From positions 32,001 to 96,000 of IMG/VR virus record IMGVR_UViG_3300032323_001119: a stretch of 64,000 bases of DNA. One strand, given 5' to 3'. This DNA is from a virus. The notes beneath the pieces are model-generated. The model was not told the origin of the DNA and made no database searches. It worked only from the letters and a program-made list of their open reading frames with translations. Position numbers and translations under genes: made by a program. This document shows positions 30,292 to 56,857 of this stretch, in pieces. How positions within the stretch are numbered: the first letter of the stretch is position 1; every line of letters begins with the position of its first letter.

Positions 30292-33200
30292 TTTATTTCC
30301 TTTATATTTAAAGTTCCATCATCTAGTTTAGATAGAACAACCTTGCATTTCATTCCTTCACGCATCTTAGCAAGAGTCATTTTATACATTGTAGGGAATG
30401 CAATTGCTCTAGTCAATTCTTTATTTCTATTTGAAAGGACTATGTGGCTCATTGTCTTTCCTGCTTTTGTTGTGTATGGCGTAAAGTTAACAACAATATA
30501 TTCATCTTCTTCTAAATCATATTCTTTTCTATATAAATAATCTACAAACATATCTTTTGATGATGGATCAATATCTGACACCTTAATATATCTAGCAATT
30601 CTATTGTCTCCAACTAGAATAAAATACATCTGACCAACTTCAATTTGTGTTTGTTCATTATGGAAAAGTCCAATTGATCCAGTTTCATCTACAATCTCTA
30701 CTCTTGCCCATCCAGAACCACGCTTAATTCCCTTGACCATTCCGAACATAACAAAAGAGCCGAGATCGTCAAATTCTTCAATGGGTCTAGCTTGTGCTTT
30801 AACTCTAGGGGGTATTCCCTCTAAGTTAAATGTTGGGATACCTAAATATTCATAGTAGTTATCCTTTTCATTGCCCTGTCTTGGGTTATCCTTAAATGCT
30901 GCTGCACCAATTGCATTTAGGGAGCTTACTGCCCTGCTGTTAATGCCGCTTCCTTTAGACGAAGCAACTGAAACAAACTGGTTGTAGTTGTCGTAAGGTC
31001 TATTATCAATAATTTTATTTGCAATGTTATCAGAAATAAATTTAATTTCAGATAAACCAAATCTAATAGCATCTTTTTGCAATGAAAAATAAAGATCAGA
31101 TTCATTAACATGTGGAAGAAGAACTTTTAGTCCTAGTCTTTTAGACTCAATAAGGTACTCTGTTCTCGCATCTTTATCATTTTCATTCTTAAGGATTGAA
31201 AACATGAACTCAAGTGGGTAGTAAAACTTAAGCCAAGCAGTATAATAGCTAAGCATAGAGTAAGCAACAGCATGGGAACGGTTAAAAGAATAGCCAGCAT
31301 GCGCTTCAAAATCGTGCCATAGCGCCTCTGCTTTTTTCTTAGTAATGTGCTCTGAAGCCCCAGTAACAAACCTATCTTTGAACTGGTCAAACTCTTTTGC
31401 ATCTTTTTTCTTTCCAATAATCTTGCGGACCTTATCAGCCTCTGCCCAAGTCATACCACCCAAGTGTACGCATGCCTGCATAACTTGCTCTTGATATATA
31501 ATAACACCATATGTGTTCTCGGTAAATGGCTTCATAATTGTATGCATGTAGTCTACTGCTTCATCCCCATGCTTACGCTTGATGTAGGCAGCTCCAACAG
31601 TATTCATGGCTCCTGGTCTTACCAAAGCGTTTGAAGCAACTAAATCTTCAAACTTGTCTGTACCCATTTTAATTAAAAGATTTGTGTAGGGTGTAGCTTC
31701 TGCCTGAAACACGCCCTTAGTGTAACCTTCGCTAAGCATTTTATAAACTTCTGGATCATCTAATGATATATCTGACAGTACTATGTCCTTGCCAGTTCTG
31801 GACTTAATAGACTTAATTGTGTCTGATATAACAGAAAGAGTTTTTAGTCCCAAAGCATCGAGTTTAATAAGACCAATATCTGCAACAGTGTCCATGTCAT
31901 ATGCAACTACTGGTATTCTGCCAGATACTTTATCCTGTGCATCTTCTCTGGATTCAACTGGAGCAAACTTTCTAAGGTCATCCTTTGCAACTACAACTCC
32001 TGCTGCGTGTACACCAACTGATCTAATACGACCACGAAGTCTATCTGCAAGCCAAACTACTTCTGGATACTTGGCTCTAAATTCTTTTGTGTTAGGGGAA
32101 GTAATAAAATCTTCAAACGTATCAATTGATTTCATTGCACGGTTAACTTCTTGCAGTGGTACCATAAATATTCGTGCTGCATCACGAATTACACCTTTAT
32201 CTTTAAAGTATGTATATGTAGAAATAGATGCAACATGCTTAAACTTTTTCTTAAGATATTCTTTTACTTCTTTACGACGTCTGTCTTCAAAGTCTGTATC
32301 AATATCTGGGAAGTCATTGCGCTCTGGATTAATAAATCTAAAGAATAGAAGATCGTATTTAATGGGATCGACATCTGTAATTCCTAAAGAATAGCAAACA
32401 AGTGAGCCTGCTGCAGAACCACGACCAGGCCCAACACGAATATCATTTGTCTTTGCCCAGTTAATCATATCAGCAATAACTAGAAAGTATGATGCAAAAT
32501 TCTTTGAGGCAATAACGGAAAGTTCTTCTTCAACCCTATCGATATAAACTTGATTGTCAGATAATCCTAGACTAGAAAGCCCTTGGTAAGACATTTCACG
32601 CAACTTATCGTCAGCATCTGTTTTTGGAACTGGCAGAAGATCGAGACCCTGATAGAAATCATATTCCTCAACTTTGTCTGAAATCTCCATTGTGTTTTCG
32701 TATATATCTGTACGAGAAATGCCAGAAGCATTAAAGTCAGCCTCAATTTCTGAACGTGATTGTATAAATAGATTATAGTCCTGAAAAGAAATTCTACGAT
32801 CAGGATAAAGATAGTTAAATCTTTCCATCATGTCTTTAATGTTTCTAGACATTTCAAAGTCTGAATCTTTATCAATCTTTGGAGATGTAGACAGAATGAG
32901 AAGTGCTTCTTCTAAAACTCTGTCTTCTTCTTTAGCAAAGTGAGCATCTCCTGTAGCAACCGCTTTAATTTTTAGCTCGTCTGCTAATTCAAGAAGCTTA
33001 TCGTTTATTTCTTTTGGGTTATGAGACTGTACTTCAACATAAAAATCATCACCGAAAGTTTTTTGAAAATCCTTGAGAACCAATTTAGCTTCACTAAACT
33101 CGCTCCTTTCGATAGCCTTAGAAATAAGACCATTAAGGCAGCCAGAAAGGACAATAATACCCTCTGCATACTCTTTTAATACCTCTCTATCAATACGTGG

Positions 33201-46882: not shown

Positions 46883-47331
46883 TATACTTCTTCCAGTGAA
46901 ATAGATACATCCCAAAATGCCTGTGGAGCATCAGATATTTTTTCTTTTACATTTCTTTTAATTAAATTAAATGAGCAGGCTGTAAATGACGCAAGGAATT
47001 CCTCTGTTCTTGTAGAGTTATATGCAATTCGTACATTAAAAGTTCCCTGCCCTTTAGCGCTTAAATAAAATGTTCTTAGGTCTTCTGCCCCCCAAAAGCC
47101 ATCTACGGTCATTGTAGAGTATGATGGAACCGTGCTCCATGAGGTAGATACAGTCTTCTTATCGGCTATAAACAGCTTTCTAAGGCTTCCATTGGCCATC
47201 CTAGCAGTTCTTTCAAACCTTTGTGTATCTATAGATATAGGGGATCTATTATGTTCTGTTAATTGACGCCATGCGTTAGTAGAGTCTTGTATAAACAAGG
47301 CTGCACCTACTGGTAAAATTAAAGCTGGCAT
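46882..47331 (-). CDS. distal tail (Dit-like) protein
   Basis: Directly after the TMP; RMANGSLR...WDVSISLEEV. Confidence 0.7.
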   Translation of the reverse strand: MPALILPVGAALFIQDSTNAWRQLTEHNRSPISIDTQRFERTARMANGSLRKLFIADKKTVSTSWSTVPSYSTMTVDGFWGAEDLRTFYLSAKGQGTFNVRIAYNSTRTEEFLASFTACSFNLIKRNVKEKISDAPQAFWDVSISLEEV

Positions 47332-50300
47332 TATATATTCTTCCCCTGTCCTACCATTTTAACATTAATCTTAGCTTTTTGTCCAATAACAACCTCAGCC
47401 TTTTTAACAATCATATTAGACAATGCTTCGACATCCATTCCTTCTGATGCGTAAATATTTTGGTTAACAACATAAGAGTTGCCTGAAACAGCACCATCTC
47501 TTACATTATACTGAGCTTGGTTAAAATTATATCTTGGCGATGCCGCTGCTAATGTATTCATTACATCGTTTGGCATAATATTTGCTTTATTCTTTAAGTG
47601 TACAAACTCTGGTCCTCTTTCTCCAACCAGGAACATTCCGCTTGCATTTTCAACACCAGTGGCAGCCTTACCTGCAAAGACTATGTTACCGTCTTTTTTG
47701 CTTCTTGAATATTTTTGTCCATTCCAAATAAATGTTTCGCCTAGCTGCAAGTCTAGTCTATCTTTAATTGCATCACGAGCCTGTGCATTAAGAACCTTTA
47801 TCTTTTTACCATCAAATTCTTTTTCTTCCAGCTGGTTGCTGTAGTTACCAGTAACCTTTATATTTCTTCTTAGCGTAGGATCTCCATTTGCACCCTTTAT
47901 GGCATTTACAACATCCTTAAGAGTTGCCCCACCCTTAATACTATTTGCGAGTGCTTCATTAACTCCTGCGCCAGTTCCAGATTTTAATAGAAGGTCTAGT
48001 GCATTTTGTTGTGGAGAAACTGGAACCTTAGTTGTAGTTGTAACTGGGCCAGTAGATGTTAATTCAGTAGTAGTTTTTGTTGTATATCTTGGCATTTTTT
48101 CGCCAGTTACGGCTTCCATTGCAGCCACAAATCCTGCTGCTGCTTCTTTATTTTTCTTCACATACTCTTGAATTGATTGTCCAGCTGCAGCTGCATTTCC
48201 GTAAAGAGCAGTCATAGAATCATTAACCTTTTTAATAGCAGCTTCCTGCTTATCATATCTAGACTTAAGCTTATCTAAACTTTCTCCAGCAATTGCTGCC
48301 GAATCAGAAAGTTTTTGCTGCTTATCTCCTAGCGCTTCAGCGGCTGCTTTAAGAGGCTTGTTAGCTGCTTCTGTAGCTTTATCTATTGCTCTCATCTGTG
48401 CTTCTGTTTGTTGCTGAGAAGTTAAAGACTCTAAATCAATTCTTAAGCTTTGCGCCTTCTCAGTGTCTCCAGTTGCGGCAGCATTTTGCATTTCAATTCT
48501 AGTTTTTTCAATTTGTCTTCCTAGATCTGCGTCTTGCTGTGCTGCCGACAAAGCCTTCTTTCTTGCTTCTGCAAGCTTATTGTTTGCATCTATTTGCTTG
48601 TTTAAAGCCTTTAGTCTATCTCTATCAGAAATTTGCTGAGCAACAGTCTGTCCCTTAAGGGCCTTTGTGTAGTTTGCAATTTGGCCCTTTAGTTTATCTA
48701 GGCTTGCATACTGCTCTTTTAGTATTCCAGTTCTATTTGTAGACTGTACTGAATCTGATATTGCTGCAAAAGAGTCTGCGATTACTTTAGTTTGTGCTGC
48801 GTTTAATGCAGAAAGATCTCCGTTAAATCCTTGTGCTTGAAGTCTAATTTTTTGCCAAACACTGACAATGGTGTCAGAACCATTAATCATCTTCTTTACT
48901 TCAGGATTTGTCTTAGCCATTTCATTAATAGTGCCTTGTGTAATTGCTGTACCAGCTTCTCTAGACTTGTTTATTTTGTCTATCATTATCTTTTCAGCTT
49001 CTGCATATGTAAGAGACTTTGTCTTACCGCTTAAATCTTTAGCAACAAGTCTTTCTCTTTTGGCAATTAAATCATTGATTCCAGTTTCAGTTGCCATAAG
49101 AGCAGTATTTAAAGATGCCGCCTTTTCTTTATTTCCCTGATCTCTTGTATCAGCACCAAAGCTAGTAACTGCTGAAACTGCTGCAGATTGTGGATCGGTA
49201 ATTGCTTTGAACTGTGCATTACCCATTGTTGCAGTAATTGATTGATCTTTTTTATTTGACAGCTGAAGCATAGTATAAACTTTTTTAGTTGCCTCATCTG
49301 CAGACATTCCAGCTGCAATTAGCTGCTCTTTAATTCTACGTACAGCATCAGGCACCTTGTTTGAAGGCTGTCTATCTAGTGCTTTAATCTGCTCTCCAAA
49401 AGTTTCTTTTACTTCTTTCTTTAATTCTTTGTATTCTGCAATTGTCATCTGGAATGGAGTCCCGCCATCTTTCATGCTTTCATACACAAGCTTATTTGCA
49501 GCCGCCATATCCTTGGCATCCTGAATAGTATCTTTAATTTTTGATCCGAAGTCTGTAAATCTTAGGTTAGCTTTTTTAGCTGCTTCTGCAGTCATTCCAA
49601 ATGTAGATATATTAAGTTCTTGTCCCTTTTTGTAGTTCTGCCACATCTTGTATCCAGCAATACCTGCTAGAGTTACTGCTGCTAGTGGGGCAACTAGTCC
49701 TGCTGCTGCAGCTGCGGTTGCACCAAATCCAGCTGATGCCATTCCTGCTGTTGCTGCACTTGCTGCAGCACGTTTTGCAACCATTCCGCCTATGCCTTTT
49801 ATAAGAGATGGGCCAGCCATTGATCCAACCATTGAGCCCATCATCATTCCATTTTGTCCACCAAGGGCATTTCCTATTGCTCCCCCTGCTGCCATTCCAC
49901 CCATAGTGCCAAGCATCATGCCTCCAGCGCCTTGGCCTAGTTCTGGGTTTACGACACCCTTTGCTCTCATATATTGAACTGGATGTAACATTGCTGATGT
50001 AGAATAACGAGCATTTGCCATAAACGATCTTCTAATTGCATTATCTGCTCTGGATGCTGGAACTTCATTGCCACGTCTATCTATATATGCTGGATTAAAA
50101 ATTGCTCCTGGAGCATTAGCAGCTATTGATCTTTCTTCTCCAATTTTATTTTTGCGATTCTGTATCATCCCAGCAGTTCTATATCCTGAATCTTTTATTC
50201 TAGTCCCAAGTGAGCTTATACTTGATGATATATCTGAAGCTGCAATTCTAGCACTTGTTATTAATCTTGTAGATGCTGCCTTAAGTCCATTAGAGATAGA

Positions 50301-53300
50301 AGAAAATGCTGAATCTATTGCTACGTTAGCTCTTTGTAATGGAAGCTTTAACCCTGGCATGTAAGGCAAAGATCCTTGCAGTGTAGGAACATTTGTCACT
50401 ACACCCTTTCCACCAACAAATGAAGTTGTCCCTACAGATAGTGGCCCAGGCTTAGGTGGAGTAGTAGCAACTGGCATCGGTGCTCTTGATGCATTAAGGT
50501 TGTTTAAATAAAGCTGTCCTATTGCCCTCTGACTTGGATCTCCTGATTTTAAAAGACGGTTAGCATGCTCTTTAGATGTAACTTGGCTAACATCAGAAAC
50601 CTTTTCGCCATAACCTATTTTACTAGATTTGACTATACCGCCTAGCATAAATCCTGGAATTATCTTGCCGCTCTGTTGTGGGCTAAATATTTCTGGACCC
50701 TTTTCTCCAACTAAATAGCTTTGTCCTGGAGATACTGGTCCTCCCATTTCTCTTTTACCATCAATGCCAAATATCTTTTTCTTAAGATCGTCTGTAATTG
50801 GTGTATTCTTTTTTGAATCCCAATTTAAGTATTTTTTCTTTAAAATATCTTTATCTATTGGAGAAAGTTGTTTTAAAACATTTCTGTCTGAAATCATATC
50901 GCTGGCAGCAGATCTAATTACTGCATCTAAAGCGTCTGGCTCAAGTCCATTCTTCAGTGTGCCGTCTGGCATCTTTACATAGCCATAAGGCTTTTCTTTT
51001 GCTAAAGCTGCTGCAAACTTATCGTATAAAAGCTTTTGAGTATTTTTTCTTAATCCAGTTCCAGCAAACAGCGTTTCTGCCATTTTAATTGATAAGGAGT
51101 TTACTCCCCATGGAGCAGATTCATACATGCTAGGTTTAGGGGCACCAGTTGGTCCAAAACCTGCACCTATTCTTCTCATGGCTATACCCTTTAAGACATT
51201 GCCAATTATTCCTCCACCATTAAATCCGTTTAGAGGAGTCTTAAAAGAATTGTCGCTTAGAGATATTGCATGACCTCTTTGACGTATTCTTAATTCAGCT
51301 TCGTCTTTTAACTTCTTTAATGCTGCTGGTGTAAGTGCCTTAGCTTTTGCAATTTCAACAGAAGAATGAATTCCATGGAACTCTTGCCAATTAACTGCTC
51401 TTCCATCTTCTAGCCTTTTAATCATTGCAGCATAAGCTTTAGCTTCATCTGGAGTTAAATCAAATCTTGATATGGTAGTCTTTAGTCTTGGTAGAACTGC
51501 ATCAATTTCATCAATCATTGCTTTATGATATTGATCTGGAGTCATACCCTTTGGAATTGACAATGTGGACTCTGCAAAGAATCTCTTTGCTCCGCCCTTT
51601 ACTCCGAGCAAGTTAATACGTGCCTGCTCTTTCATCGAAATCATTTCTTCTTCATAGGCTCTTTTACCAGAAGCCATCTTAAATACTCCAGCCGTTCCAA
51701 CATCAGCCAATGTGCTTCCAGAAAGATTATCTCTACTTAAATCTCTATCTCCTCTTAAATTAGCTGCAACTAATTGCTTAAAGTAATCTTCTCGTGTAAA
51801 TGATCCTGACTTATTTACAAATGCTTCGTCATAAGGAGACTCTAGTACAAGCAGCTTTCTCTTTCCAGTTGGATCTGTAGGGTCAAGCATGGTTCTAATT
51901 TCTTGTCTTGGAGCATTTAATCCATGTGCATCTCTTGCAATAATAGTTGCACGTTGCTCTGCTAGGGCTGCAGTTTCATCCATTACTGGTTTAACAAATA
52001 CTTTAGTTCCATCTGGTTTTTCATAAACTCCACCAATTCCAGAAACTGGGAAGCTTCTTCCAGATGAAGGAGAAATTAGTTTTCCAAAGTCTGTTGGAGG
52101 CATTGAAGCAAATCTGCTTGTACTCAAAGATTGGCTTATTTCATCCATCTGCATTCTTGCGTTTCTTTGTTGCTCTACAGCTTTAAATGATCTAGGCATT
52201 CCAAGGAAAAGCTTGCCGTATCCGTACTTGCCTTTCTTTACCATACCGCCGATCATACCGCCAGCATTAGCAGCTCTAAGTCTTCTTCCTCCAACCATTG
52301 CAAACATCTGTCTCTCAGCTTTTCTAGGTTTTGCTGGAGTTCCAGACTCTCTAAATATTTTCATGTCAGCACCCAATGCTCTGACTAAGCTTTCTGGTAT
52401 AGGACCTTTACCAGTCCATCTGCCAGTAGAAATCCATTTTTCAATAACTGGTATATGTCTTTTAAAATCATCTACATCTTTAAATCCAAATGAAGTTGCA
52501 AGCCTGTGTGCTCTAGCTATAGCCTCATCTTTGGTAAGCGGAACTACGTCATCAATAATTTTTCTTTGCTCTAACCTGTTTCCAAATTTGTTAAAGTCAT
52601 CATGGGCAGCTTCTCCGTAATAGCCTCGTGCAGCTATAGGCCCAGACATTCTTTCTATATGTGCACGATCCCAGCCTGGATTTATGACAGCACCAGGGAA
52701 CTTTGCTTTTAAAAGATTAAGTATTTGAAGCTTTGCTCTATTATTATTTTTTGCTGCACCTGCTTTTGCCAGCTTCCAATCTTTGTCTGTTTGTCCTGGC
52801 TTTCTTTCAAGCACAAGATCTGGGAAATTCTTTTGCATGTAGGCTCTTTGTGCCTCAACATAGCTCATTCCTTTACCAGTTCTTAGATACTCTTCATGAC
52901 TTGCCAAGGCAAGTCTTACGGCTTTTTCTGCTTCTGCAATTGCTCTTGAAGGAGTCATATTCATGTCTTTTGAATACTGCAGTATTGCAGTTGCATCATT
53001 TTGAATTAAGTTAGGAACAATATGATCTACATAAGGAGTTCTAACTCCAGTTAGATGATCTATGTACTGAGATGCTTTTTGAAGCTCAGACATCCCTCTT
53101 GCTGGACCGTCAAACATGTCTTGCATCTTGCCATAATTTCTAATTCCTCTTGTTACCATGCCACCCAAAATTCCGCCATTATTTCTTAGTTGGACTCTTG
53201 ATCCACTATTAGCTTTATCTAGCAAAGGCTTGTTGGCTGCTGTAAACTCTGGGTCGAAATAAGTTTCTCTAGGTGTGAGAATCGCATCTATAACTTTGCC

Positions 53301-56192
53301 CCCACGATTGTATCCATTTGATGCCATTCTAACTAAATCAGGATTATTACGTGAAGCTTCTTGATTCAATATGTAGCTTCCTTCTGGAAGTCTTGCTGGA
53401 ACCATATCATAATCAATATTTGATGGGCCTGGGACTATTGAACCATGCTTTGATGGATCATAAACTAATCCTCCAGTATTTAGCTGTCTAGGTTTTGTAG
53501 TCTGAATACTATACCCTGCGCCTGATGTTCTAACGCCAAGCCCACGAGCAATTGAATCTACAAGCTTAGAAGTTTCTGTTTTGTGAAAAAGCTCTTTCAT
53601 GTTTGACTTGCCTGCTGCGCTTACAACTGGCTGTGTCGTTAATGGAACTGTAGTTAAACTCAAGGTTCTTGCCTGTGCTGTTGCAACACCTTGAGCCGTT
53701 TGAACCATCATTGCTTCTACTTGTGCATTTAATGCAAATATTTTTGCTCTTGCTGCTTCTACTGTAATCTTACCAGCTTGCAACTGTTTAACAATTAATG
53801 CTGTTTCGTCTGCCGCTAAAGATGTTATCTTTGTCATTTGTGGCAAAAGTGCCTGATATGAATCTGATAATGATGCGGTTACTGTACCAGTTGCTGCTAT
53901 TTCAGTCTTAAGTGTTGCTAATTCTGCTTTTGACTGCATAGCAATTGCTGCTGTCATTGAGTGCCACTTAGCAGCTTCTGCTGCAACTACACCAGTAGAT
54001 ACACCGTTTACAGAACTCAGCCCTTGAACTCTTGGCAGATCATCTGACATGTAAAGTTGTGGGGCATTCGAAATTCTTTGATTTACTGGCTTTGGACCTG
54101 GTACTGTAGAGAATATTGTTTCTTCTGCTCTTTGCTGTGGCGTCTTTGATCCAGTTGGAATCATGTGAGACATGTCTCTAGAATATGCTCTACCTACAAG
54201 AGGATTATTCTTATCTACTATTCTTCCTCCGCCTGCCATTACTGGGTTTCCAGCAACAGTAGACATACTATTGGATGTAGCAATAGTCGAACTCATTGCG
54301 CTTTGCTTTAGTCTATCAAATGATGCCGCAAGGGTCATTACTGCATCTGAGAATGTAGCAGCAGCTTTTGTATCGCTATAGAATGATTGCTCTACTGTTT
54401 TGGCAGCAGCAGATGCTGCCATTAATTCTGGTGTTAATAATTTAAAGCCAGTCCCACCCTTACCGATGTTCTTAAGGGCTAATATTCCTTTTATTATATA
54501 TCCGAAGAAGTTTGCAAGCACACCAGTAAGCATGATTATAGGACCAGCAATTGCTGTAAGTCCACCAATAAATCCTAGAACAGCTTTAATTGGACCTGGC
54601 AGATTTCCAATAAACTTTAAAATTCCATCTATAGCATTTAATACAAATGCACCAATTTTTAAGAATTGTTCTCCAACTACCGCAAGTTCTGCTTTTACAG
54701 ATTCAAGTGCTCTTCTGTATTTACCAGATGCAGATTCTGTAAGCGCTGTTAATTCTCGTGCTGAAATTGCTGCTAAGTCTTGTGTGCTTGCTTTCATCAG
54801 GTCTAAAACTTGAAGAGTCTGGCTTCCTTCTTTACCAAGGTTTTCAAACAATGCGTTGATTCTAGCAAATTGAAATTTACCGAATAGCTGTTCAATTGCT
54901 CTTGCTCTTTGTAGAGGCTCAAGTGAATCTAGGGAATCCTTGAGTGCCATAATTGTTCCAGTTAGATTTCCAGCATTTTTATTTACAATGCCAGACAAGT
55001 CTATTCCGAATCCCATAAACATTTCTTTGGCAACCTTTGTAGGGTTAATTACAGATGCTAAAGCTGACTTTAATGCGTTGGCACTTTCTGATGCGTTAAT
55101 TCCACCTTCACGCATAGCAGTTAGATAAAGAGCAAGGTCTTGTACTTCTCCACCAAGTGCTTTTACTACTGGGCCTGCTTTTGGAATAGCAGTTACTAAA
55201 TCATCTAGAGTAGTAGATGTCTGGTTTTCAACTGCGTTCAAGAAGTCGATTGACTCGGCAAGTTCCATTGTATTTTGTCCGAAGGCTGTTTGAATAGCAA
55301 GCGTAGCCTTCATAGCTTCTTGTCTATCTACTTCACCAAGAATTGCAAGTCTAGTTGTTTGTCTTGTAGAGTCTATAAGATCTGCGCCCTGTTTTCCAGT
55401 AGCAGCAATATCTGCGGCAAGTGCAATAGTTTCTGTAAAGTTTGCTCCTAATCCAGAAGCTAATTCTCTAGATACTGCCATAACATCTTTACGAACCTGA
55501 AGAAGATCGGCACTTGATGTTGCAACTAATCCGCCATAAACCTTTGTAAGTCTTACAAGCTCTTCATCTGCTTGTCTAAATGCTTTTGCTGCAGCCATAC
55601 CAAACGCTGCAAGTGGCACAGTTAATCCTACTGTTAACTGGCGACCAGCCCACTGTGTATTCTTACCCCAATTGATAAGCTGATTCGATCCATCCATCAT
55701 TACCTTGTTCATGATGGCAAGTTCTTGTCTTAGAAGAGCTGACTTATTTTTTGTAACGTCTAGTCCAGATTGAACCATTACGTTATATTGCATTAAGCCT
55801 TGTGCATTTTTACCAAGCGGCTGGATAATTGAATTCTCAAGCATTACCTGCTGCTTAGCAAGGTCTCGAACTAAATTGCTAGTCTTCTGTGTATGTCCTT
55901 GCCATGTTCTGAAGTACTGGCCAAGCTTCATTCTGCCGCTGTCTAAATTTTGTCCAAACTTAGATACGTCTGATGTAAGAGTTACGAAGTGTCTAGAAAA
56001 CTGGCCAGTGGAGCGCATGGTTTCGTCAAACTGACGATTCATGACTCCAACCTGGCTAGTTAGGTTTTTATTTAAACCAATTGTTGTAGCTTGGAGTTTT
56101 AAGAGTTGCGAAGTAACCGCTTGTAACTGCGCTGTTAGGCTAGAAAAATTAGCCGTCGCAGTTATGTTGGTTACTATATTTTGATCTGCCAA
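47331..56192 (-). CDS. tape measure protein with internal cargo domains (2953 aa)
   Basis: TP901-type TMP core in the N-terminal third, hydrophobic segments, LVGE(K/R)GPE motifs; follows the tail chaperones. Confidence 0.92.
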   Translation of the reverse strand: MADQNIVTNITATANFSSLTAQLQAVTSQLLKLQATTIGLNKNLTSQVGVMNRQFDETMRSTGQFSRHFVTLTSDVSKFGQNLDSGRMKLGQYFRTWQGHTQKTSNLVRDLAKQQVMLENSIIQPLGKNAQGLMQYNVMVQSGLDVTKNKSALLRQELAIMNKVMMDGSNQLINWGKNTQWAGRQLTVGLTVPLAAFGMAAAKAFRQADEELVRLTKVYGGLVATSSADLLQVRKDVMAVSRELASGLGANFTETIALAADIAATGKQGADLIDSTRQTTRLAILGEVDRQEAMKATLAIQTAFGQNTMELAESIDFLNAVENQTSTTLDDLVTAIPKAGPVVKALGGEVQDLALYLTAMREGGINASESANALKSALASVINPTKVAKEMFMGFGIDLSGIVNKNAGNLTGTIMALKDSLDSLEPLQRARAIEQLFGKFQFARINALFENLGKEGSQTLQVLDLMKASTQDLAAISARELTALTESASGKYRRALESVKAELAVVGEQFLKIGAFVLNAIDGILKFIGNLPGPIKAVLGFIGGLTAIAGPIIMLTGVLANFFGYIIKGILALKNIGKGGTGFKLLTPELMAASAAAKTVEQSFYSDTKAAATFSDAVMTLAASFDRLKQSAMSSTIATSNSMSTVAGNPVMAGGGRIVDKNNPLVGRAYSRDMSHMIPTGSKTPQQRAEETIFSTVPGPKPVNQRISNAPQLYMSDDLPRVQGLSSVNGVSTGVVAAEAAKWHSMTAAIAMQSKAELATLKTEIAATGTVTASLSDSYQALLPQMTKITSLAADETALIVKQLQAGKITVEAARAKIFALNAQVEAMMVQTAQGVATAQARTLSLTTVPLTTQPVVSAAGKSNMKELFHKTETSKLVDSIARGLGVRTSGAGYSIQTTKPRQLNTGGLVYDPSKHGSIVPGPSNIDYDMVPARLPEGSYILNQEASRNNPDLVRMASNGYNRGGKVIDAILTPRETYFDPEFTAANKPLLDKANSGSRVQLRNNGGILGGMVTRGIRNYGKMQDMFDGPARGMSELQKASQYIDHLTGVRTPYVDHIVPNLIQNDATAILQYSKDMNMTPSRAIAEAEKAVRLALASHEEYLRTGKGMSYVEAQRAYMQKNFPDLVLERKPGQTDKDWKLAKAGAAKNNNRAKLQILNLLKAKFPGAVINPGWDRAHIERMSGPIAARGYYGEAAHDDFNKFGNRLEQRKIIDDVVPLTKDEAIARAHRLATSFGFKDVDDFKRHIPVIEKWISTGRWTGKGPIPESLVRALGADMKIFRESGTPAKPRKAERQMFAMVGGRRLRAANAGGMIGGMVKKGKYGYGKLFLGMPRSFKAVEQQRNARMQMDEISQSLSTSRFASMPPTDFGKLISPSSGRSFPVSGIGGVYEKPDGTKVFVKPVMDETAALAEQRATIIARDAHGLNAPRQEIRTMLDPTDPTGKRKLLVLESPYDEAFVNKSGSFTREDYFKQLVAANLRGDRDLSRDNLSGSTLADVGTAGVFKMASGKRAYEEEMISMKEQARINLLGVKGGAKRFFAESTLSIPKGMTPDQYHKAMIDEIDAVLPRLKTTISRFDLTPDEAKAYAAMIKRLEDGRAVNWQEFHGIHSSVEIAKAKALTPAALKKLKDEAELRIRQRGHAISLSDNSFKTPLNGFNGGGIIGNVLKGIAMRRIGAGFGPTGAPKPSMYESAPWGVNSLSIKMAETLFAGTGLRKNTQKLLYDKFAAALAKEKPYGYVKMPDGTLKNGLEPDALDAVIRSAASDMISDRNVLKQLSPIDKDILKKKYLNWDSKKNTPITDDLKKKIFGIDGKREMGGPVSPGQSYLVGEKGPEIFSPQQSGKIIPGFMLGGIVKSSKIGYGEKVSDVSQVTSKEHANRLLKSGDPSQRAIGQLYLNNLNASRAPMPVATTPPKPGPLSVGTTSFVGGKGVVTNVPTLQGSLPYMPGLKLPLQRANVAIDSAFSSISNGLKAASTRLITSARIAASDISSSISSLGTRIKDSGYRTAGMIQNRKNKIGEERSIAANAPGAIFNPAYIDRRGNEVPASRADNAIRRSFMANARYSTSAMLHPVQYMRAKGVVNPELGQGAGGMMLGTMGGMAAGGAIGNALGGQNGMMMGSMVGSMAGPSLIKGIGGMVAKRAAASAATAGMASAGFGATAAAAAGLVAPLAAVTLAGIAGYKMWQNYKKGQELNISTFGMTAEAAKKANLRFTDFGSKIKDTIQDAKDMAAANKLVYESMKDGGTPFQMTIAEYKELKKEVKETFGEQIKALDRQPSNKVPDAVRRIKEQLIAAGMSADEATKKVYTMLQLSNKKDQSITATMGNAQFKAITDPQSAAVSAVTSFGADTRDQGNKEKAASLNTALMATETGINDLIAKRERLVAKDLSGKTKSLTYAEAEKIMIDKINKSREAGTAITQGTINEMAKTNPEVKKMINGSDTIVSVWQKIRLQAQGFNGDLSALNAAQTKVIADSFAAISDSVQSTNRTGILKEQYASLDKLKGQIANYTKALKGQTVAQQISDRDRLKALNKQIDANNKLAEARKKALSAAQQDADLGRQIEKTRIEMQNAAATGDTEKAQSLRIDLESLTSQQQTEAQMRAIDKATEAANKPLKAAAEALGDKQQKLSDSAAIAGESLDKLKSRYDKQEAAIKKVNDSMTALYGNAAAAGQSIQEYVKKNKEAAAGFVAAMEAVTGEKMPRYTTKTTTELTSTGPVTTTTKVPVSPQQNALDLLLKSGTGAGVNEALANSIKGGATLKDVVNAIKGANGDPTLRRNIKVTGNYSNQLEEKEFDGKKIKVLNAQARDAIKDRLDLQLGETFIWNGQKYSRSKKDGNIVFAGKAATGVENASGMFLVGERGPEFVHLKNKANIMPNDVMNTLAAASPRYNFNQAQYNVRDGAVSGNSYVVNQNIYASEGMDVEALSNMIVKKAEVVIGQKAKINVKMVGQGKNI

Positions 56193-56195
56193 CTC

Positions 56196-56564
56196 TTACT
56201 CCTTTTTGTATCCGAGTCCCGCTCCGATACCAAACCCTGCTTCTGATGCAAACTGACCTTGTAATGAAACAATGTCAGATGGATCTGCAGTTATTCCAAG
56301 AGCCTTTCGTCTTACGTCTTCAAAGCTCTTGCTTTGTTGTTCTTCTTCAGCGCTATCAAGTTCTACGCCTTGTATTGCGGCCAAAAATTTTCTTTTCTCT
56401 GATTCAGTCTTTTGCATAGATTTAAAAGTTTGAATCAATTCTGGCATTGAAAGACTGTCTTCCAATTCCTCGTAATTCTTATAGTTTCCTATTAGAAATA
56501 CTTCTCCTTCTAATGCAGCTAGATCTAGTTCTGACCAGCTAGAACCGCTGCTGCTAGCAAATTT
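56196..56564 (-). CDS. tail assembly chaperone, -1 frameshifted extension (gpT-like)
   Basis: Frame is open from the AAATTTG site through SWSELDLAALEGEVF... to 56196; TGA just upstream of the site in this frame. Confidence 0.75.
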   Translation of the reverse strand, partial: KFASSSGSSWSELDLAALEGEVFLIGNYKNYEELEDSLSMPELIQTFKSMQKTESEKRKFLAAIQGVELDSAEEEQQSKSFEDVRRKALGITADPSDIVSLQGQFASEAGFGIGAGLGYKKE

Positions 56565-56857
56565 GGATCATCCATCTTAATGCCACCGCAAACTTCAAGG
56601 ATACGATTAATTGTTGGTACATCTAATACGTCCTCAAATGCATCTCTATCTGCTACCAATTCTGGAAGCTGCTTTTCTAGTGCTACTGCACAAGCATCGA
56701 TTAGGATGGTTAATGTTTCGTCTTCTGTAGTTACTTCTGCTGTCTTACTGATAGCGGCCATAAACTTTCTAAGCTCTTTAATGGTTAAAGGCTTCAGCTT
56801 TACTGTTGCGCCATTTTGTAGTTGAATCTCTTCTACATCATATACTGTTGTTGCCAA
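56525..56857 (-). CDS. tail assembly chaperone (gpG-like)
   Basis: Between major tail and TMP genes; AGGAGG RBS. Confidence 0.85.
   Translation of the reverse strand: MATTVYDVEEIQLQNGATVKLKPLTIKELRKFMAAISKTAEVTTEDETLTILIDACAVALEKQLPELVADRDAFEDVLDVPTINRILEVCGGIKMDDPNLLAAAVLAGQN

Follow-up and report, generated by a model that had tools for sequence, protein, structure and literature searches.

A tape measure protein with a predicted kinase-like domain and an exchangeable cassette slot in an uncultured siphovirus

The window studied here is a stretch of 64,000 nucleotides (positions 32,001 to 96,000 of the virus record IMGVR_UViG_3300032323_001119), which forms part of a viral record of 110,437 bp that has direct terminal repeats. 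It encodes a tape measure protein (TMP), hereafter W, whose middle part is an array of unrelated folded modules parted by a recurring glycine motif. One of these modules, block B, has the predicted fold of an atypical kinase, and another, block A, sits in a slot whose content changes between related TMPs. We lean slightly towards reading W as a modular cargo carrier, in which an exchangeable cassette, an atypical kinase and a conserved domain (block C), held together by glycine joints, would act upon entry into the host. A sequence-only reading of the window had proposed that this TMP is built as an array of cargo blocks set between linkers, and the results below partly support it.

W matched PHROGs TMP families, phrog_10030 with an expectation value (E) of 2e-119, and the Pfam family PhageMin_Tail (PF10145) at E 4e-27, over the curated cut-off. 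Major tail and chaperone genes stand before its gene, and minor and distal tail genes after it, an order shared with the tail module of the annotated Streptomyces phage LukeCage. These sequence comparisons confirm the product as a TMP within a siphovirus tail module. Residue numbers below (aa, amino acids) are those of W, and L-numbers (L003, L048 and so on) denote related loci.

The folded modules of the cargo region

Block B was modelled with AlphaFold2 from a 48-sequence alignment as a compact globular domain (predicted local distance difference test, pLDDT, 87.0; predicted template modelling score, pTM, 0.83). The top 50 Foldseek matches to this model were all kinases, beginning with CtkA (E 2.5e-4) and continuing with GAK, WNK3, RioK1, HipA and Vps34. 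VIA-align, which is independent of Foldseek, returned 12 chains at Z ≥ 8, led by CotH (Z 11.6, 215 residues aligned), with MavQ (10.1), PI4KIIalpha (9.8) and both CtkA and HipA (9.4). The motifs GIGGVY, VFVKP, ALAEQR, RGDRDLSRDN and LADVG follow one another in the canonical order and supply, in block numbering, a Gly loop (GIGGVY), Lys74, Glu85, a D157-x4-N162 catalytic loop and D170-V-G172, the residues being assigned to their roles from motif order and secondary structure and not from superposition. In a sample of about 150 cluster representatives, each at most 50% identical to the others, G61, K74, E85, N162 and D170 were 100% conserved (134–145 representatives), and D157 was present in 144 of 145. 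Block B is, as modelled, a two-lobed atypical protein-kinase-like domain, and because the catalytic residues are invariant across clusters that are at most 50% identical, their conservation argues for a predicted active site that works. The earlier expectation that at least one of the blocks would be enzyme-like is borne out by this fold.

With CotH, MavQ/PI4K type II and HipA/CtkA (PDB 5jda, 7m7a, 4hnd, 3akj, 4pu3), the block B model shares the two-lobed fold (Z 9.4–11.6 over 192–222 aligned residues) and the order of Gly loop, Lys, Glu, D-x4-N and D-x-G. It differs from these atypical kinases in having only 8–14% identity to them and no Pfam or PDB sequence match, in the short gap (8 residues) between the catalytic Asn and the metal-binding Asp, and in its occurrence almost only inside proteins of 2000–4400 aa instead of as a free-standing protein. 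The domain was found in 168 such clusters and in 326 viral contigs, and it mostly starts near residue 720, directly after the TMP core.

Block A also gave a compact globular AlphaFold2 model (pLDDT 84.9, pTM 0.79), so that the globular look ascribed to the blocks from their sequence holds for both A and B. The view that the blocks are unrelated to each other stands as well, since A, B and C had no pairwise BLAST similarity at E < 0.1. Within the block A family, D44, H156, N179 and D193 (block numbering; alignment A3) are invariant. The model places strands at 154–156, 164–166 and 173–175 and a helix from 179, and H156 and N179 thus occupy the positions expected in the beta-beta-alpha core of a His-Me finger (HNH/DRGH) nuclease. 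No nuclease appeared in any of the block A fold searches, the His-Me motif being too small for whole-domain searches; the best matches were at E 0.2 with Foldseek against the PDB and Z 4.8 with VIA-align, and BFVD gave nothing. A search for free-standing homologues of block A yielded one fragment only.

Other searches with the blocks were similarly bare. PDB sequence and profile searches with A, B and C were empty, scans of the single blocks against Pfam, PHROGs and NCBIfam returned nothing beyond the GEKGPE motif, the ESM Atlas gave only weak, unnamed viral clusters for A and C, and tblastn of the middle region of W against 50,697 phage records found no match. Block C, which has no match in Pfam or the PDB, forms together with the GEKGPE module the most conserved stretch of the cargo region, with 72% mean column identity and 77 invariant columns (alignment A4). 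In a subgroup of relatives (L004:9000-9332 and L004:10170-10502, also L005, L006, L009 and L011), a 45-residue insert lies between linker 2 and block B, and block C is missing, linker 3 running straight into the GEKGPE motif.

Glycine linkers and cassette exchange

The linkers between the modules follow the pattern NxGG, to which the longer forms add two hydrophobic residues, a second GG and a G-x3-YG ending; shorter variants are NTGG (aa 905), NRGG (aa 962) and EMGG (aa 1815). A regular expression for the linker core matched three times in W and not once in 5000 shuffles. N.GG occurs five times, always within aa 905–1658, where 0.37 occurrences are expected and where none of 20000 shuffles reached five. 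Indeed, all three linkers quoted in the sequence-only reading were recovered at their positions, at a frequency far beyond that in shuffles, and its central picture, an array of unrelated folded modules parted by a recurring glycine motif in a TMP, is supported. The same reading had suggested that the linkers are recombination and/or processing points. The idea that they are DNA repeats that drive recombination was rejected because linkers 1 and 2 are only 60% identical at the DNA level (36 of 60 bases) and share no long stretch of exact matches; judged by their sequences, the linkers are not recombination sequences but joints that selection maintains in the protein. Most members of the kinase-module family have another joint ahead of block B, …PGEAVIPA…GNIPGYAKG-FLGMP, which has no NxGG.

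For the comparison of relatives we used 72 distinct TMPs out of 90 related loci. They share a common plan of core, pre, preL, variable slot, B, C, GEKGPE, variable region, Gly-rich segment, helical part, variable region and C-terminal end. The sequences in the slot of block A form 11 BLAST subfamilies. Six of these (0, 3, 5, 6, 7 and 9) were joined by hhalign, at 76–99% probability, into one fast-diverging superfamily, and the remaining five were unrelated to it and to one another (hhalign probability < 7%). The slot thus accepts at least six unrelated families, but the assumption that all its variants are mutually unrelated was partly wrong, as six of the eleven subfamilies are diverged homologues.

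On a tree based on the core, the six slot-A families need 10 changes, against a minimum of 5, and the 640-aa core of L048 is identical to those of L060 and L061 while its cassette is different. Homology stops right after NTGG between W and L020 and between W and L033, inside NNGGILGG of linker 1 (the left crossover) between W and L003, and at NGGPGNTSG between L048 and L060; it returns at linker 2 (NAGGMIGG…GYG) in every comparison. The cargo region has about 11 distinct breakpoints, of which 5 lie within 12 aa of a motif. Breakpoint clusters at aa 903–912 (six comparisons), 1012–1022, 1309–1314, 1648–1652 and 1843–1859 (five comparisons) are each at most 12 residues from a motif. Between W and L003, the synonymous divergence (dS) of blocks A and C reached 1.54 and 1.51, respectively, and because these values are far above those of the flanks (0.52–0.63), they indicate that blocks A and C were imported separately, block by block. 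In the closest pair, W and L010, the ratio of nonsynonymous to synonymous divergence (dN/dS) was 0.18 in block A and 0.035 in the core; by this measure, block A is evolving faster than the core, yet under purifying selection. Judged from these comparisons, the block A slot is truly swappable.

The exchange was more restricted than the sequence-only reading had supposed. That reading expected swappable cassettes at the linkers and, among related TMPs, a conserved core and conserved linkers around blocks that swap. This fits slot A, whose content changes and where breaks fall on NxGG, but blocks B and C are collinear and conserved across the family, apart from the loss of C in the L004 group. 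Variable parts are limited to the block A slot, preL and the region that follows linker 4. As crossover points the linkers also had mixed success, since homology breaks there but the tract that separates L048 from L060 runs from the NxGG motif to about aa 2100. In this pair the DNA identity is 80–89% in block B, and 99% is regained only near aa 2100, which rules out linker 2 as a constant right-hand crossover; here the whole cargo region moved as one unit.

Layout of the protein and its genomic setting

Table 1. Features of the tape measure protein W, with positions in the window.
Feature	Residues (aa)	Window position	Strand	Remarks
TMP gene	1-2953	47331..56192	-	Single open reading frame (ORF list and translation), 2953 aa, TTG start
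TMP core	1-640	54273..56192	-	PhageMin_Tail at aa 243-438; hydrophobic hairpin at aa 503-573 (hydropathy peaks)
Region pre	641-900	53493..54272	-	Conserved in the W-like clade, 58-95% identity among relatives
Region preL	901-1002	53187..53492	-	NTGG at 905 and NRGG at 962, a VPAxLxPGExV-type motif after each
Linker 1	1003-1022	53127..53186	-	RNNGGILGGMVTRGIRNYGK; quoted stretch NNGGILGGMVTRGIRNYG is aa 1004-1021, window 53130-53183
Block A	1023-1307	52272..53126	-	Variable cassette; mostly helical folded domain with a small beta sheet
Linker 2	1308-1327	52212..52271	-	ANAGGMIGGMVKKGKYGYGK; quoted stretch NAGGMIGGMVKKGKYGYG is aa 1309-1326, window 52215-52268
Block B	1328-1655	51228..52211	-	Atypical protein-kinase-like domain (predicted)
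Linker 3	1656-1679	51156..51227	-	GFNGGGIIGNVLKGIAMRRIGAGFG; variant NGGGIIGNVLKG begins at aa 1658; kept as the start of block C
Block C	1680-1808	50769..51155	-	Small domain, very strongly conserved
Internal GEKGPE module	1809-1846	50655..50768	-	Internal copy of a motif usual near TMP C-termini
Linker 4	1847-1864	50601..50654	-	GFMLGGIVKSSKIGYGEK; quoted stretch MLGGIVKSSKIGYG is aa 1849-1862, window 50607-50648
Region post	1865-2085	49938..50600	-	Second variable region; 34-73% identity, flanks 75-98%
Gly/Met-rich zipper and hydrophobic helix	2086-2181	49650..49937	-	29% glycine; hydropathy peak at aa 2154-2181
Helix-favouring region and C-terminal part	2182-2780 and 2781-2953	47334..49649	-	46% A/E/K/L/Q; 75-95% identity among close relatives

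Outside the folded blocks (Table 1), scans of Pfam, PHROGs and NCBIfam found no family match for pre, and preL forms the left margin of the variable zone. The internal GEKGPE module matches the C-terminus-proximal part of PHROGs TMP families and of fragments bearing PF09718 (Tape_meas_lam_C). A second copy of GE.GPE, GERGPE at aa 2857 (window 47553-47645), lies 97 residues before the true C-terminus, the internal copy being at aa 1829, and with two such copies W looks like two TMP-like units in tandem. The dN/dS of region post is 0.4–0.6. Pfam Gly-zipper families match the counterpart of the Gly/Met-rich segment in L014, and the hydrophobic segments at aa 503-573 and 2154-2181 bracket the cargo region.

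The TMP of LukeCage (2102 aa) aligned with W at aa 157–597 and weakly at aa 2526–2680 in the helical part; it has no N.GG motif, no GE.GPE motif and nothing that matches aa 598–2525. Because LukeCage thus has the core and the helical half with no match to the part between, the cargo region of about 1450 residues between core and C-terminal half looks, from this alignment, like an insertion.

In L038 the TMP frame stops inside GEKGPE and resumes in another frame (L038:11400-11500); the idea that this TMP is naturally divided behind block C was rejected in favour of a frameshift, probably an assembly error. Relatives of 3900–4270 aa have an extra 1500–1850 C-terminal residues (L045:12784-17517, L060:13457-18778, L048:13439-18988), where a peptidoglycan-binding domain of the OmpA family is found (E 4e-17 to 5e-16). 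The extra regions of L045 and L060 also match, weakly (E about 2e-3), the part of the ABC1 and APH kinase families that contains the catalytic loop, and on this similarity they possibly hold a second kinase-like module.

The nearest cultured relatives are Streptomyces phages of the Stanwilliamsviridae, with about 35% identity in the TMP core and 41–48% in the capsid protease; by TMP core, LukeCage is the closest of them. By these identities, the source of the window is a siphovirus distantly related to that group, and its host is probably an aquatic actinobacterium of low guanine-plus-cytosine content. Among genome collections, the kinase module was found in only two contigs, L094 and L095, from metagenome bins assigned to an uncultured Bifidobacterium and an uncultured Acidimicrobiaceae bacterium, both Actinomycetota; these may be prophages or mis-binned phage contigs. 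The genes neighbouring the TMP are siphovirus tail genes, and no sheath gene was matched among them. Lastly, an 89-aa ORF (56196-56465, minus strand) sits between a chaperone-like gene (56525-56857) and the TMP, in the position of LukeCage gene 59, and may be the second part of a frameshifted tail chaperone pair.

Possible roles of the modules

If W is a modular cargo carrier, the cargo region would have been gained between a core with a hydrophobic hairpin and a glycine-rich, helical C-terminal half. The glycine motifs would be neutral joints, at which a break leaves every module intact, and cassette exchange would appear exactly at the motifs because recombinants that break there keep the modules whole. 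The modules would pass through the tail tube with the TMP in a non-native state and would be expelled at infection. Block B would then act as a kinase dependent on adenosine triphosphate (ATP) and, ahead of all phage gene expression, would target a host protein or a membrane lipid at the entry site; its action would be cytoplasmic, since the ATP that it needs is found only inside cells. Block A would be a host-specific accessory, either the effector itself or a targeting module for the kinase.

Several points weigh against this account. That the modules stay in the mature virion and arrive in the cytoplasm is something we infer. Three folded domains of 35 kDa are too big for the lumen of the tail tube (about 4 nm) and would not fit, so that an unfolded stored state must be assumed. 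Blocks B and C are conserved and not polymorphic, and the diverged tract between L048 and L060 extends to about aa 2100, so the linkers are not the sole crossover points. No Pfam kinase family, the CotH family PF08757 included, matches block B at E up to 10. Neither block A nor five of the other cassettes of this slot matched any family or fold, and the cassette families have no recognised function.

A bolder version, which we regard as possible but doubtful, makes the giant TMPs a phage-borne injection platform, with a conserved 'first-strike' kinase and a fast-swapping effector slot for host specificity or anti-defence, the modules entering the actinobacterial cell before the DNA and possibly being freed at the glycine joints. 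In its most specific form, suggested by structural neighbours of the model that include PI4K type II and MavQ, the kinase might phosphorylate phosphatidylinositol at the entry site. Phosphatidylinositol is a lipid typical of actinobacterial membranes.

We think it unlikely that the modules instead act in the phage-producing cell. There, the TMP is made late in infection in an ATP-rich cytoplasm, and the kinase could act on host or phage proteins or on the TMP itself, while A and C could serve tail assembly as chaperone docking sites, a length checkpoint or a plug, and might be cut off before maturation; in phage lambda, the TMP gpH loses part of its C-terminal end while the tail is assembled. 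The size of the folded domains relative to the tail tube would agree with this, and the conservation of block C and GEKGPE, which exceeds that of the rest of the cargo region and recalls an ordinary TMP C-terminal motif, suggests a structural or assembly role. Such a role does not, however, explain why phages whose cores are identical have exchanged a hypervariable cassette, a pattern typical of host-facing parts. Furthermore, the cargo lies between two hydrophobic segments that are presumed to insert into the membrane of the host, and, as phage P23-45 demonstrates, a TMP-fused enzyme is able to act upon entry (PMC10770324).

The linkers themselves could be read in two other ways. Were they protease sites, the TMP would be a polyprotein cut in the virion or after ejection to free effectors, which seems to us rather improbable. 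The motif does recur at every module boundary, and the internal copy of a TMP C-terminal-type motif adjoins linker 4. Viral polyproteins and bacteriocin leader peptides commonly use Gly-Gly as a signal for cleavage, and processing occurs in the lambda TMP. However, the conserved element, at about 18 residues with a Y-G end, exceeds the usual length of a cleavage site, the genes beside the TMP showed no dedicated protease, the block B joint has no NxGG in most family members, and the sole apparent split TMP, L038, is a frameshift. It is harder still to believe that each linker is a short element of the glycine-zipper type (GxxxG within GGxxGG) that touches the membrane and helps to thread the modules across, as in Tde1, a type VI secretion effector. 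The N-terminal glycine zipper of Tde1 is required for translocation and is similar to parts of certain TMPs (PMC10240207). GGILGGMV and GGMIGGMV have paired GxxxG spacings and W also contains a long Gly/Met zipper (aa 2086-2150), but in each linker only about 8 residues are hydrophobic or glycine before charged ones follow, and none reaches the hydropathy threshold.

To our knowledge, almost all known TMP cargo degrades the cell wall, the RNA polymerase of Thermus phage P23-45 being the only published enzyme of this kind that acts in the cytoplasm. W resembles the TMPs with muralytic cargo (M23/LytM peptidase, lytic transglycosylase or Rpf-like motifs) in having an enzyme domain embedded in it. 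Muralytic domains are thought to act on the host envelope during ejection, whereas a kinase that needs ATP points inside the cell, and Pfam and family scans detected no muralytic domain in W. By eye, the C-terminus of the LukeCage TMP (L093:7088-13396) shows an M23/LytM-like GxxGxxxGPHLHFE signature (…GNTGNSTGPHLHFE…). In P23-45, the TMP gp96 is fused to a virion RNA polymerase whose activity and presence in the virion were demonstrated and which was proposed to act at the entry pore before phage gene expression (PMC10770324). Like gp96, W is a giant TMP with a cytoplasm-type enzyme in the same polypeptide; instead of one N-terminal enzyme it has several internal modules between the core and a hydrophobic segment, a swappable slot and, by its model, a kinase-like fold.

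In Actinobacteria, the Sle1-type effectors of contractile injection systems, which are related to TMPs, carry structurally diverse and exchangeable domains on a TMP-like scaffold inside a tail-like tube (PMC13277306, PMC11126660). Sle1 is bacterial, with one variable C-terminal domain, a Sle2 partner and a contractile injection system gene cluster, whereas W is a genuine phage TMP in a siphovirus tail module with an internal multi-module array. The combination of a conserved carrier with variable modules exchanged by recombination at short conserved junctions also recalls polymorphic toxin systems and phage 'polyvalent proteins', in which, as Zhang et al. 2012 and Iyer et al. 2017 are said to have described, variable modules are joined to a conserved delivery part. 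The W family shares this architecture, with non-homologous modules on a conserved carrier at a conserved motif; unlike in polymorphic toxins, the variable module is internal, not C-terminal, and no immunity gene was seen, although no search was aimed at one. Polyvalent proteins are believed to be carried in the head and not to serve as tail rulers.

Our literature search found no paper on a kinase, or on a motif-bounded multi-module array, inside a TMP. Enzyme-carrying TMPs were known before, with muralytic domains or the P23-45 RNA polymerase, and the kinase-bearing, slot-bearing array adds to them. More than 300 uncultured viral contigs encode a TMP that contains a kinase with a complete predicted catalytic centre, beside a slot whose cassette changes between phages that are otherwise identical. 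If the modules do enter the host, siphoviruses would own a modular route of protein injection comparable to polymorphic toxin systems, their TMPs would be a new place to seek host-takeover and anti-defence functions, and the glycine motifs would offer natural joints for engineering cargo into phage tails.

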